DNA of 64,000 bases from an uncultured Rickettsiales bacterium (GCA_900551865.1 URXV01000003.1:11079-75078); one strand, 5' to 3'. Shown: positions 46,156 to 49,897, counted from the stretch's first letter. Notes: generated by a model not told the origin, from the letters alone. Translations and numbers: made by a program.

Positions 46156-46440
46156 TCAACCGACGAATTTTTCGATTAAAAGCCTGGTTGCTTTTCTTGA
46201 GATCGGAGCCTTCTCCACAGCATAGAGCAGAAGTTCCCGATTACCGAGTTTAACCAGTTCGCATTGTGCCTCTTCCGACAGATTGTAGGTCGCAATGTAA
46301 AGCTTAATCAGAACGGCGTCACCGCGGCTGATAAGCGCAATCTGAGCCGGAATGCACAGCCAGGTATGCTCCAGAAATGATTTCAATTCGTTGACATCGG
46401 CCGTTTTCGCCAAATTGGTTTCAAATGTTTCGTCTGACAT
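46156..46440 (-). CDS. Hypothetical protein (94 aa)
   Basis: ORF only, with no clear SD. I recognise no family. Confidence 0.3.
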   Translation of the reverse strand: MSDETFETNLAKTADVNELKSFLEHTWLCIPAQIALISRGDAVLIKLYIATYNLSEEAQCELVKLGNRELLLYAVEKAPISRKATRLLIEKFVG

Positions 46441-46531
46441 AATCAATAAACTTTAAGTGATACAATAATCTGTTAATAATTATAAAAACCTGTAAAACAA
46501 TATCTGAAATTTAATAGCTGATATTCAAAAT

Positions 46532-47096
46532 TTAATGATTGATGTCCAGTGAGTCAATAATTTTTTTCGCGTCTTCAGGAGCATAATCCCAATAGGCCGA
46601 GGCAATAATCCTTTTTTGTGTTTCTTCGTCAAATCGGAATTTGATAATTCTCGCCGGACAACCGCCCACAACGGCAAAATCGGGAACATCTTTGTTGACA
46701 AAGGAATTAGCGCCGACCACGGCACCGTTGCCGATAGTAACGCCGCGCCGAATAACTGCGTTTACGCCAATCCAAACGTCGTTTTTAATAATACAGTCCT
46801 TTTTGGTTAAGTCGTGATACCCCCCCCCCCCGGTATGAAAGAAGCGTCGAGGTCGAAACCTCATCAAGATTATGTTCGCCTTGCCCGATTCTGACATGCG
46901 AAGCAATACTGCAATATCTTCCGATTTTGGCTCTGGTAATATCGACGTCCCTGCCGACAGACGTATAATCGCCGATGTCACAATGCGAATCAATAACGGA
47001 AGATTTGTCAACGCAGGTATGTTTGCCCCGTACGTAGGCATTGGCTTTTTTGTTTCTTAGAATATCAATAGCCTTTTGTATTAGTCTGATTTTCAT
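46532..47096 (-). pseudogene. Hexapeptide-repeat (LbH, Vat/CatB-like) acetyltransferase interrupted by a frameshift in a G12 tract
   Basis: The N-terminal part is the ORF 46785-47096 and the C-terminal part is the ORF 46532-47041 ([35 protein letters not shown]). The two frames meet in the homopolymer. Confidence 0.7.
46820..46831 (-). repeat. Homopolymer: C12 on the plus strand, G12 in the coding sense
   Basis: Counted directly from the sequence. G11 or G14 would fuse the two acetyltransferase ORFs in frame. Confidence 0.95.
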
Positions 47097-47114: not shown

Positions 47115-47531
47115 TTATTTTCCTAAAACCGTCCTGATGGCAGTTGTTGATCTGACCGGCAATAAATCTTTGGGGATACGATTGCTGACGATATAACGTA
47201 TTCCTAAATCTTCTACGGCTTTACGCTTCTCTGGGCTGTCCCCGTCGCTGTTGACAAAGAAAATATCCGGCTTAATTTCTGCCAGCTCTTGCAAAAAGTC
47301 GAGTTTGCCGCTTCCTTTGGCGATAAAAGCCTGATGAACATACCGGATAGCCCCGACCATATACAGGCGTTCCTTTTCGTTATAAAGTGTTTTGCGTTTC
47401 TTCAGTTCTTCCACCGTCTTGTCTGAACCGATGGAAACATATAAGTCGCCGTACTGGCTTGCCTCTTCAAAAAAACGGATATGCCCGCTGTGCAGGACGT
47501 CAAAACAACCGGAAACAAAAACTTTAACCAT
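47115..47531 (-). CDS. Cytidylyltransferase-family protein (TagD / CTP_transf_like)
   Basis: GCFDVLHSGHIRFF is the HxGH motif, and the 138-aa size fits the family. Confidence 0.75.
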   Translation of the reverse strand: MVKVFVSGCFDVLHSGHIRFFEEASQYGDLYVSIGSDKTVEELKKRKTLYNEKERLYMVGAIRYVHQAFIAKGSGKLDFLQELAEIKPDIFFVNSDGDSPEKRKAVEDLGIRYIVSNRIPKDLLPVRSTTAIRTVLGK

Positions 47532-48357
47532 GATTACTTTTCCTAACTTTTGTTTTTATGCAAAAATCTGCCAGATAATATTTGGTTACACCGTTAACAC
47601 GTACCACTTTACATAGGCCGTAACCCCATTTTATTTTCAGTTTATTGTGTTCTGCAAGCTCCGCCGCAAAAAATCCCTGCCATTTTTTGCGGTAGTGCGG
47701 GCGGATATTCGTAATCAGCTGCGAAGCCGAAAGTGAATTAATAATATAATCGGCAAGCGCCAGTTGGTATTTTTTACCGGCAAAGTGCTGCGTATCTCTG
47801 TATTTGAATTTTTTTTGTACAACATGAGAATACAGGTCTATCGTTTGGAAAGCAAGAGTTTCACTTACCTGTGTTTGGATTTTATTACGTGAACATATTT
47901 CTCTGTTTACATCGTCGTCAAATTTTTTTAAGTTATTGGCTCGGACATTCGGAGCTGTCGTCAGTATGACGATGTTTGGAGTATGGGAATACAGATAACC
48001 GAGAAATTTTTGATATGCCCGTTCATATTGCTCCGCATCTTCAGCATTATCTGCTGTGTGCAAATACATACCATGCTTTCCTCCGATATTGACAAGTATA
48101 AGAGAATAGCTGTACTCCTTATTTTTGAAAAACATATCGCAGACATCATAAAGTAAGTGGTCTTCAATAGAAGCCGACGAACCGACAAAATCAACAGCAT
48201 ATTTGGGAAGAAGTTTTCCTAAACTGCTTCGGAATTCGCGGGAAACGCTGTCGCCGACTAAAAGAATACGCGGGCAGCCAAAATTTTTGGCATTATCAAT
48301 CCACGTATTGCTCCATTCAACATTTTCCCGGTCTTTTTCTTTATTAAAGCCAGTCAT
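47524..48357 (-). CDS. SGNH/GDSL-like hydrolase or O-acyl esterase
   Basis: LLVGDSVS (block I), NIGGKHG (block III-like) and RDTQHF (DxxH) motifs. Its ATG forms an ATGA overlap with the upstream stop. Confidence 0.55.
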   Translation of the reverse strand: MTGFNKEKDRENVEWSNTWIDNAKNFGCPRILLVGDSVSREFRSSLGKLLPKYAVDFVGSSASIEDHLLYDVCDMFFKNKEYSYSLILVNIGGKHGMYLHTADNAEDAEQYERAYQKFLGYLYSHTPNIVILTTAPNVRANNLKKFDDDVNREICSRNKIQTQVSETLAFQTIDLYSHVVQKKFKYRDTQHFAGKKYQLALADYIINSLSASQLITNIRPHYRKKWQGFFAAELAEHNKLKIKWGYGLCKVVRVNGVTKYYLADFCIKTKVRKSNHG

Positions 48358-49280
48358 AACTTTATCCAATCTTCAGGGACAATATCACCGGAATATTCGG
48401 CGGCGTCCGGTTTGAACCATTGCTTAGGCGCCACGACAATCTTGTCCGGATTTGTATTCAGCCAGGCGCCCCACCACGAAAATGTGCTGTTGGCGATAAT
48501 ATTATGGCGGCAGTTCCGCATCAGTTCCAAGTCAAAATAGCCGTGTTTTTCATCATTAATTTCAACGATAGTCTGCGGATAGGCCGTTTGTATATTTGCT
48601 CGAACCCAGTCTGTATCGCTGGAAAAAATAAAGAAATGCGGTTTATCAACGCGTTTTCCGATATAATCCATCGCATTCAGAAAATAATCCTTGTCCAAAT
48701 AAGTAAAAGGGCTGCGCGGATTAAGATAGTCGCCGCGGCGGATATGAACGGCAACGGCATTGGCTGCCCGGATTTTGGCAAGCATATCAAGATTCGCTGC
48801 ATCAAGAGTTTTTGTCAGCGTAAAATCATGCAGCAGCCTTTCTCGCAGCGGTTTGAAATATTTTTCGGTCTGGAAAACTCCGTCATAATAAACGTCGCCT
48901 TCTTTGCTTAGGAGTTCCGGTTCGTAACGGTTAATCTGTTTTTCGCAAACGCGGTTGGTTTTCAGGTAAATAAATTTTCCCAGATTAAATTTTTTACGGA
49001 TAGAACGGGGAAGAATGTTTTTAAATCTGATTTCGTTTTTACATCTTTTTATTTGTTCATCTGAGGCAAAATCTCCGCTGATGCTATACAATCCCAAATC
49101 AAAACTGCGGTAATGGTTGGTCAAAAAGCCGGTATTATCCCACAAAACATTGCCGGCAGCCAGTCCGAAGGCATATTGAAACATCTGATTGCCGAGCCCT
49201 CCGCCCAACCTGACGATACGCAGCGGTTTATTCGGGGAAACCTGGGCGGAATATTTGCTTTCTTGATGTGAAACAGCCAT
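48354..49280 (-). CDS. Alpha-1,2-fucosyltransferase (glycosyltransferase family 11)
   Basis: GGLGNQMFQYAF, HIRRGDY and STFSWWGAWL motifs. AGGAG lies 5 nt upstream of the ATG at 49280. Confidence 0.85.
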   Translation of the reverse strand: MAVSHQESKYSAQVSPNKPLRIVRLGGGLGNQMFQYAFGLAAGNVLWDNTGFLTNHYRSFDLGLYSISGDFASDEQIKRCKNEIRFKNILPRSIRKKFNLGKFIYLKTNRVCEKQINRYEPELLSKEGDVYYDGVFQTEKYFKPLRERLLHDFTLTKTLDAANLDMLAKIRAANAVAVHIRRGDYLNPRSPFTYLDKDYFLNAMDYIGKRVDKPHFFIFSSDTDWVRANIQTAYPQTIVEINDEKHGYFDLELMRNCRHNIIANSTFSWWGAWLNTNPDKIVVAPKQWFKPDAAEYSGDIVPEDWIKL

Positions 49281-49324: not shown

Positions 49325-49464
49325 AAACCAACCTTTTAAATATATACTTGAGTAGACATCCAATAGCAAGAATAAGTTATCCTAATCCATTATAATTAAA
49401 TAATTAATTGAAAAGACGAAAATCTTGTTGTGAATAAAAAACTGCTTATTTAAAAGGTTGGTTT
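49325..49464. repeat. Perfect 18-bp inverted repeat flanking a 104-bp AT-rich segment
   Basis: AAACCAACCTTTTAAATA at 49325-49342 is the exact reverse complement of 49447-49464. Confidence 0.9.
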
Positions 49465-49580: not shown

Positions 49581-49608
49581 CAAAAGCGCCTGCTTATCCA
49601 ACAGGCGC
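49581..49608 (-). terminator. Intrinsic terminator after tRNA-Pro
   Basis: GCGCCTG / CAGGCGC stem, followed by TTTTG on the minus strand. Confidence 0.65.
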
Positions 49609-49614
49609 CCAATA

Positions 49615-49691
49615 TGGTCGGAACGGGTGGATTCGAACCACTGACCTCTGCGACCCGAACGCAGCGTTCTACCAGGCTGAACTACGTTCCG
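49615..49691 (-). tRNA. tRNA-Pro (anticodon CGG)
   Basis: The manual cloverleaf has acceptor CGGAACG/CGTTCCG, anticodon loop TTCGGGT, T-loop GGTTCGAATCC and an encoded CCA. Length 77 nt. Confidence 0.9.
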
Positions 49692-49897
49692 TTGTTCAAC
49701 GAACATATATCTACACAAAAAAAAATTAGATTACAAGCTTTTTTTTCATCTGTGCGTAAAAAAAATTATCTGTACGCAAAAATGGTTTGTATGCCAATAA
49801 TCTTATATGTATAAAAATAATATTTGCATAAAAAAATTGACGCTTTTGCAAATCAAGTGTAAAACAAACCGGTCAGAAATTGTGCAAGGAGAATAAA

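Follow-up and report, generated by a model that had tools for sequence, protein, structure and literature searches.

Switching of glycan genes by poly-G or poly-C tracts inside the coding sequence is a classical trait of Campylobacter, Neisseria, Haemophilus and Helicobacter. Poly-G contingency genes include those for modification of the capsule and the lipooligosaccharide (LOS) in Campylobacter jejuni as well as lot3 and pglI, which encode glycan O-acetyltransferases in Neisseria. A second type of switch, the invertible promoter (inverton), is known from the capsular polysaccharide promoters of Bacteroides and from fimS of Escherichia coli. We analyzed a 64,000-nt stretch of DNA from an uncultured Rickettsiales bacterium (GCA_900551865.1 URXV01000003.1:11079-75078), called the window in the following, in which a run of 12 G's in the coding sense (G12) interrupts the gene of a putative glycan O-acetyltransferase. 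Judging from the allele series in public assemblies, this run is likely to be a slippage-type contingency switch of the enzyme. It shares with the Campylobacter and Neisseria genes an intragenic G run of about 8 to 13 nt in a gene predicted to modify a surface glycan, the toggling of the frame by one base, and alleles of many lengths among near-identical strains. Unlike in these genera, the host is an uncultured gut commensal alphaproteobacterium that otherwise avoids G/C runs, and there is one such locus in 64 kb. A 104-bp segment upstream of the same operon resembles invertons in its small size, its perfect inverted repeats, its location in front of a predicted surface-glycan operon and the occurrence of both orientations in nature, but in contrast to the Bacteroides and fimS elements, the window yielded no invertase gene and the internal promoter is a prediction.

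The closest described enzyme switch is NeuO of E. coli K1, a phase-variable polysialic-acid O-acetyltransferase with a left-handed beta-helix (LbH) fold, which is switched by changes of repeat number within its coding sequence (PMC3046976, PMC13001214). O-Acetylation of polysialic acid by NeuO affects phage and immune recognition (PMC13001214). Both systems involve an LbH O-acetyltransferase, a surface glycan as the known or predicted target, and coding repeats that change in number. In neuO, however, the repeats are heptanucleotides near the 5′ end of a prophage-encoded gene, whereas the gene studied here carries a mononucleotide run behind the codon for the putative catalytic His, is chromosomal and syntenic across species, and encodes a protein that is structurally closest to VatD and CatB, which are XAT enzymes, and not to NeuO. 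In Helicobacter pylori, poly-C tracts in futA, futB and futC make host-like fucosylated glycans phase-variable, a GT11 enzyme being among the gene products (PMC2806470). That system, too, consists of a small set of fucosylation genes including GT11, uses homopolymer slippage and belongs to a human gastrointestinal bacterium, but in the window the GT11 gene has no tract, the tract lies in the accompanying acetyltransferase gene, and the operon appears to be controlled by inversion. In Akkermansia muciniphila, G9-to-G10 frameshifts recur independently in the G9 tract of the surface-polysaccharide gene Amuc_1413, and a poly-G switch of Bifidobacterium breve is cited in the same paper (PMC13055324). 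Amuc_1413 likewise combines a poly-G tract, a surface-polysaccharide gene and a human gut commensal. Its switching was demonstrated by experimental evolution of a cultured strain, with mucin binding as the phenotype (PMC13055324), whereas the present case comes entirely from comparative metagenomics and has a much wider natural allele series (G6 to G13). The kind of mechanism is thus already known, gut commensals included, and the locus described here is a further instance. A preliminary description of the window had called such a switch unexpected in this kind of genome. This holds for the lineage, as our literature search found nothing relevant on phase variation in RF32/CAG-type gut alphaproteobacteria, but not for gut commensals in general.

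Length variation of a G tract in the acetyltransferase gene

The plus strand of the window reads C12 at the tract (CCCCCCCCCCCC), and the acetyltransferase gene lies on the minus strand. As the preliminary description had proposed, the gene is split there into two overlapping open reading frames (ORFs), 46785-47096 (103 residues) and 46532-47041 (169 residues). Both are found exactly in a mechanical ORF list, they overlap over 46785-47041, and homology indicates that the true reading frame crosses from the first to the second at the G run (Table 1). When the gene was translated at several tract lengths, 11 and 14 G's gave one continuous protein, as had been predicted, and so did 8 G's. The in-frame products comprise 186-187 residues, 187 in the G11 version. 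With the tract set to 10, 12 or 13 G's, a stop codon followed soon after the run, and at out-of-frame lengths translation ends at residues 94-103, i.e., 19-28 residues past His75. In the following, in-frame and out-of-frame alleles are referred to as ON and OFF.

No other G/C run in the window reaches 7 nt, and the expectation for runs of at least 12 nt is 0.003 per window if bases are independent and identically distributed. Four G/C runs of at least 6 nt were found compared with 18 expected, an about 4-fold depletion, and none had a length of 7 to 11 nt. The G12 run is real and no chance feature.

Table 1. Location of the G tract, the acetyltransferase gene and neighbouring features in the window
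Feature	Position	Strand	Remarks
Homopolymer tract, G12 in the coding sense	46820..46831	-	Codons 89-92 (Arg-Gly-Gly-Gly) of the acetyltransferase; predicted OFF length, +1 frame
G/C runs of at least 6 nt	448, 41288, 44618, 46820		Whole-window scan
Predicted CatB/XAT-related LbH (hexapeptide) O-acetyltransferase, interrupted by the tract	46532..47096	-	Pfam Hexapep, E=1.9e-15
N-terminal ORF of the acetyltransferase	46785-47096	-	103 aa; contains putative catalytic His75
C-terminal coding part of the acetyltransferase	46532-46819	-	+1 frame
Cytidylyl/adenylyl-transferase-like protein, HIGH-motif nucleotidyltransferase	47115..47531	-	138 aa; Pfam PF01467, E=7e-13; TIGR00125 domain
SGNH-fold esterase/acyltransferase-like protein	47524..48357	-	277 aa; Foldseek; presence varies among strains
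GT11-family (alpha-1,2-fucosyltransferase type) glycosyltransferase, first operon gene	48354..49280	-	308 aa; Pfam PF01531, E=1.7e-31
Conserved small ORF, possible fifth operon gene	46156..46446	-	94-96 aa; called in all related contigs
Invertible element (104-bp segment 49343-49446 between perfect 18-bp inverted repeats)	49325..49464	.	Repeat search and contig alignment
tRNA-Pro(CGG) (49615-49691) and terminator-like hairpin (49584-49610)	49584..49691	-	Upstream of the invertible element

The preliminary description had also suggested comparing the tract in related genomes. All lengths were read from assembled public contigs (L-numbers denote retrieved contigs or loci), which fall into the clade of the window and a main clade. 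Every length from G6 to G13 was seen in public assemblies of the species when both clades were combined, and unlike lengths occurred between identical flanks. A sample of 31 contigs that was independent of the tract (10 retrieved via a neighbouring gene, the species-representative genome, and 20 retrieved via flanking sequence) contained G8 in 22 cases, G7 in three, G9 in three, G10 in two and, in one case, an AG7 sequence that is in frame. In this sample G8 was the commonest allele, and 23 of the 31 contigs were in frame and 8 (26%) out of frame. Contigs of the window clade were retrieved via the exact SGNH or GT11 proteins and were at least 98.5% identical over 1.9 kb, except for L105 with 95.5%. 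Among them we found G7 (L096, L100, L101, L102, L107), G8 (L097, L099, L103, L105, L108, L114) and G12 (two SPAdes contigs and a scaffold of SAMEA3879605). Look-ups of the exact products yielded G6 (3 contigs), G7 (48), G8 (16), G9 (3), G12 (5) and G13 (1) for the window allele, and G6 (8), G7 (119), G10 (42, one of them in a contig of 1.87 Mb) and the in-frame G11 product of 187 residues (5) for the main-clade allele. Contig L115 from an unrelated run (SRR24045142) could be aligned to 3059 nt of the window with one gap and not a single mismatch, having G13 where the window has G12.

Insertions and deletions were surveyed in a 1.94-kb alignment of 39 distinct sequences, comprising the window and 38 contigs. 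The tract was the only recurrent indel site, with five length classes and 15 of the 39 sequences differing from G8. All other indels were clade-fixed intergenic differences or singletons; A7 and T7 runs in coding sequence were invariant, and upstream A/T runs of 8-9 nt showed only between-clade differences or singletons. Runs of A9, T8 and A8 are clustered at 49717-49765 and around 49836, in the intergenic region upstream of the tRNA-Pro gene, and the T run at about 49765 is 7, 8 or 9 nt long depending on the clade, with singleton variants in addition. A neighbour-joining tree of the 39 sequences was built with the tract left out, and parsimony on this tree required at least 10 changes of the tract compared to 0.12 substitutions at an average site. 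Contigs with identical flanks over 1.9 kb differed in the tract in several instances: L114 (G8) and L107 (G7), L011 (G8) and L093 (G7), and L007 and L009 (both G9) versus L001, L002 and L005 (all G8).

Selection on the gene and alternatives to switching

Several points weigh against a switch. Part of the differences between assemblies may be due to miscalled homopolymers, above all in contigs of low coverage and where G12 is set against G13. Three contigs of the window's strain (L110, L111, L112) end inside the tract, one of them with an Illumina adapter attached, which would fit mixed lengths or poor reads, and several G12 contigs possibly stem from one study or individual (PRJEB12449-related accessions). 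OFF alleles, G7 above all, are very common, and an often-dispensable gene could give the same pattern. Finally, the acetyltransferase reaches no curated equivalog cut-off in NCBIfam.

Some of these points bear on whether the length differences are real. Five contigs produced by different assemblers and pipelines (SPAdes NODE contigs, METAG scaffolds) agree on G12, and a G13 allele and alleles from G7 to G9 exist beside it, which does not fit a single in-frame length that was misassembled. G7, G9 and G10 are each represented by dozens to more than 100 contigs, some of them 0.65 to 1.87 Mb long; G7 to G10 are well inside the consensus accuracy of Illumina sequencing, and A/T runs of 7-9 nt in the same contigs are free of recurrent variation. 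We therefore regard it as quite unlikely that a sequencing or assembly artefact conceals a true in-frame length of G11, or that most differences are miscalls in an intact gene, even though long G runs are hard for short reads, the ends of the three contigs within the run would be in line with such an artefact, a one-base miscall could separate G12 from G13 in identical backgrounds, and the exact G11 product of the window allele is absent from the collection.

The coding sequence on both sides of the tract is conserved. For the acetyltransferase gene, the comparison of the window clade with the main clade gave 0.25 synonymous (dS) and 0.012 nonsynonymous (dN) substitutions per site and a dN/dS ratio of 0.046, with 0.035 before and 0.057 after the tract. 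The acetyltransferase is under purifying selection on both sides of the tract. The OFF alleles examined (G12, G9, G7, and G6 in L027) all formed full ORFs once the tract was normalised, and none contained a second lesion. The locus is syntenic in three other species (L012, L027, L021), where it lies between the AP-endonuclease gene and rplS. L012 (72% protein identity) has G8 at the same codons and is ON, with diverged flanking nucleotides; L027 (76% protein identity) has G6 and is OFF, with the frame changing exactly there; and L021 (71% protein identity) lacks the G run. GGG accounts for only 17% of the glycine codons and CGG for 21% of the arginine codons, giving a chance of 0.006 for CGG-GGG-GGG from codon usage. 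Elsewhere in the window, 33 genes were found to encode 73 Gly-Gly pairs, none of them as GGGGGG. From these sequence comparisons, the G run looks preserved rather than accidental.

These data also bear on the possibility that the tract is a mutational hotspot and no adaptive switch, the frameshifts being ordinary losses of a dispensable gene on its way to a pseudogene. The abundance of OFF alleles (G7 in 48 and 119 contigs of the two clades), the lack of the tract in L021 and the OFF state in L027, the loss of the adjacent SGNH gene in many strains, and occasional other frameshifts in the GT11 and acetyltransferase genes are what such a process would produce. We nevertheless consider it unlikely, because the low dN/dS ratio on both sides and the otherwise intact OFF alleles do not fit a fixed pseudogene with further decay, ON alleles form the majority in the unbiased sample, the existence of ON alleles at both G8 and G11 implies passage through OFF and back, and the run is kept at the nucleotide level between species whose proteins are 72-76% identical, although its codons are rare and G/C runs are avoided genome-wide.

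A third explanation would be that the frameshift is corrected during expression, by slippage of RNA polymerase or by ribosomal frameshifting, so that the tract tunes the level of enzyme made from G12. Slippage of transcription can occur on long homopolymers, the two ORFs overlap (see above), and in futC of H. pylori a poly-C tract is combined with translational frameshifting. As the commonest allele is the in-frame G8, which needs no recoding, and as no slippery heptamer or stimulatory structure was noticed, no search aimed at them having been made, we regard this explanation as very improbable.

The comparison of assemblies, with lengths from G6 to G13 between identical flanks, at least 10 independent changes, an otherwise intact gene and two ON lengths, supports the slipped-strand phase-variation switch that had been postulated from the window sequence. 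In such a switch, nascent and template strands would misalign within the G run during replication, and G's would be added or removed; runs of about 7 nt or more are long enough to slip, a length that both G12 and the modal G8 exceed. Tract lengths of G8, G11 and G14 keep the frame and would yield the enzyme of 186-187 residues, with the extra glycine lying in a loop of variable length. As judged from XAT structures, frameshifted lengths, which truncate the protein after residue 92, would cost it the C-terminal beta-helix coils and the C-terminal domain and leave the enzyme dead, and the G12 allele of the window would represent the OFF state. Cells would then differ heritably, and probably reversibly, in the O-acetylation of a fucosylated surface glycan, most likely of the lipopolysaccharide (LPS)/LOS type. 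Reversibility is suggested by the occurrence of ON alleles at both G8 and G11 together with the scattering of the states on the tree. G12 and G13 in backgrounds identical over 3 kb, and the contigs that break off inside the tract, are indirect hints of frequent switching within a clonal population. By analogy, altered recognition by phages, antibodies or lectins might result, and evasion of phages and antibodies may be the ecological role, as judged from NeuO and from Lewis-antigen variation in H. pylori.

The acetyltransferase and its operon

The nearest PDB relatives of the restored acetyltransferase are the XAT enzymes VatD (1khr) and CatB, and the structure of a polysialic-acid O-acetyltransferase (3jqy) is a detectable sequence relative (E=1e-10). 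The protein has the hallmarks of the XAT/CatB type, namely a hexapeptide beta-helix and a His with an extended loop behind it. E74-H75 was invariant across 22 aligned homologues, and H75 aligned with the NH of GANHRMDG in VatD (1khr), a stretch which we take to hold the catalytic His. The tract-encoded R89-G-G-(G) falls into a loop that is bordered by two conserved motifs, ISTS and Y..LT. As the length of this loop differs among homologues, one extra glycine in G11 compared to G8 is plausible.

The scores of the acetyltransferase against the NCBIfam equivalogs were 87 bits for Vat (streptogramin A; cut-off 300) and 84 bits for CatB (chloramphenicol; cut-off 350), and the matches to Vat, CatB and WbbJ were all far below the cut-offs. 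A role in antibiotic resistance was rejected because of these scores and the glycan-biosynthesis context, and modification of antibiotics by the enzyme is unlikely. The best NCBIfam match, TIGR03308 (phosphonate-associated hexapeptide transferase), was also discarded, as it was below the cut-off and phosphonate genes are absent nearby. NCBIfam contained no equivalog for the acetyltransferase, GT11, SGNH and small-ORF proteins.

The acetyltransferase gene had been described as the last gene of a fucosyltransferase/SGNH/cytidylyltransferase operon, and the identity of these neighbours was borne out (Table 1). The genes for the GT11 protein, the 277-residue protein, the cytidylyltransferase-like protein and the acetyltransferase either overlap by 4 to 8 nt or are separated by an 18-nt gap. 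The GT11 protein scored 110 bits against PF01531 (gathering cut-off 23.9) and is a predicted fucosyltransferase; gene calls in related contigs share the start codon used here. Rare 1-base deletions (at about 49127 and 48722) split the GT11 gene in two further contigs besides L001, where T5 is shortened to T4. A second tract in this gene, suggested by the split in L001, was rejected, as the cause was the singleton T5-to-T4 change and not a recurrent site. A 1-base deletion at about 46627 interrupts the acetyltransferase gene in one aligned contig, and late-frameshift products are recorded (P0002, P0003, P0153). The deletions outside the tract in both genes are singletons or doubletons and represent either real changes or sequencing errors.

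For the 277-residue protein, the Pfam match to SGNH was weak (E=0.0024, 18 bits compared to a threshold of 27), and its AlphaFold model was moderate (predicted local distance difference test score of 73) because homologues are very few (8 clusters). The top 50 Foldseek matches of this model were essentially all SGNH/GDSL proteins, the best being 4h08 (BT3161; E=1.6e-9), and further matches included acetyl-xylan esterases and sialate O-acetylesterases. Since the fold matches and the residues S37 (GDS, block I Ser), N90, D188 and H191 (DxxH, block V Asp/His) are invariant, the SGNH label holds. The gene is present in the clade of the window, in L003 and in L008, and absent in the other 8 of the 10 neighbour-gene contigs, which belong to the main clade. 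In contigs without it the GT11 gene is followed directly by the cytidylyltransferase gene, and the copy in L108 is truncated to 88 residues. The cytidylyltransferase-like protein scored below the cut-offs of both the rfaE domain II model and the TagD model.

The position of the acetyltransferase gene at the end of the operon is approximately right but not certain, because the conserved small ORF follows downstream on the same strand and may be co-transcribed with the operon. Its product is 47-48% identical in the sister species L012 and L027 and matched no Pfam or NCBIfam model.

The nearest homologues of the acetyltransferase beyond the alphaproteobacterial clade are found in Gastranaerophilales, gut Melainabacteria (L013, L014 and L016; 64-66% identity), where the Gly-Gly codons contain at most 5 G's in a row and thus no long run. 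The homologue in a complete Gastranaerophilales genome, 64% identical, is flanked by GT10, GT11 and GT2 genes on one side and by a GT9 (heptosyltransferase) gene on the other. The GT10-GT11-GT2-acetyltransferase-GT9 cluster lies at L014:2360-8645; L013 and L016 were checked for linkage to GT11 only. The operon partners, together with the glycosyltransferase-flanked homologue in Gastranaerophilales, point to the decoration of a fucosylated glycan, which is plausibly of the LPS/LOS type given its gene context. The same gene neighbourhoods suggest that a module for fucosylation and acetylation was exchanged horizontally between gut lineages.

The window as a whole is housekeeping chromosome (ffh, rpsP, rimM, trmD, rplS, tig, fmt, pyrG, tpiA, a gyrB-like gene, tsf) of a host genome with a medium G+C content of 47.6%. 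A scan with one genome per species located the locus, at 97% protein identity, in the metagenome-assembled genome "Acetobacter sp. 46_36" (MNTT01), which represents an uncultured human-gut alphaproteobacterium. This organism is very prevalent: the exact cytidylyltransferase protein is indexed in 4240 assembly-collection blocks, mostly from human gut metagenomes.

The upstream invertible element and its possible meaning for the surface glycan

A 104-bp segment upstream of the operon is bounded by the inverted repeats 49325-49342 and 49447-49464 (AAACCAACCTTTTAAATA / TATTTAAAAGGTTGGTTT), and the element ends 44 nt before the ATG of the GT11 gene. In five independent contigs (L002, L007, L011, L091, L103) the segment is the 97-100% reverse complement of the window sequence, and the window has the majority orientation, which it shares with about 30 further distinct contigs. 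Each orientation is represented in both clades and also among contigs with identical flanks. The region 49325-49464 is thus a bona fide invertible element. Its repeat sequence was not found elsewhere in the 64-kb window. In the sister species L012 and L021 the element was not found in front of the orthologous operon, and a search for comparable repeats upstream of the homologous operons in L012, L021, L013, L014 and L016 gave only AT-rich or weak (71-92% complementary) matches. Genes for an invertase or recombinase and for mismatch repair were absent from 30 further ORFs of the window, and no recombinase gene was found among the genes around the operon.

Because a tRNA-Pro gene and a terminator-like hairpin lie upstream, the operon needs its own promoter at or within the element. 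A strict scan of the 104-bp segment detected no sigma-70 promoter; by eye, and in comparison with an alphaproteobacterial consensus, we read in it CTTGCT-N17-GTATAT, which is directed toward the operon in the window orientation. The segment probably carries the promoter of the operon and would then form a second switch for all of its genes, independent of the tract. Among the five inverted contigs, four have G8 and one has G9, and in this small number no correlation between orientation and tract was obvious.

The contigs L114 and L115 begin at the boundaries of the element. Repeated breaks of assemblies of the window's strain at the G tract and at the edges of the element would be expected from sites that vary within samples or are difficult to read. 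In one contig (L005:1-4925), the match to the window breaks off close to the right repeat, within a few bases of it (at about 49347 of the window). Upstream lies foreign DNA with genes for a DinB-like polymerase, DUF2779, a WYL protein and a serine recombinase (Resolvase/Recombinase). This junction may reflect the integration of an element or a rearrangement at the same site.

Combining these observations, we tentatively put forward, as a serious possibility, a two-layer combinatorial system in which inversion of the promoter switches fucosylation and decoration together and the poly-G tract, selected and shared by several species, independently toggles O-acetylation, with the presence or absence of the SGNH gene as a third axis. 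Homopolymer contingency loci are textbook knowledge where mucosal pathogens are concerned; observations in gut commensals are recent and come from a few cultured ones. The value of the present locus lies in the abundant uncultured host lineage, the unusually complete allele series, the conservation of the tract across species, and its combination with an inverton and a presence/absence SGNH gene in one four-gene operon, the switch being visible from public assemblies alone. In practice, gene callers and pangenome pipelines split or drop the acetyltransferase gene and assemblies break at both switches; the G12 frameshift should neither be polished away nor be annotated as a pseudogene. For the biology of the host, the tract and the inverton together suggest that a fucosylated, O-acetylated surface glycan is under strong and fluctuating selection, probably exerted by phages, immunoglobulin A (IgA) or lectins. 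If the two-layer system is true, the surface-antigen state of this bacterium would be readable from metagenomic reads and could be related to host IgA, phage load and disease.

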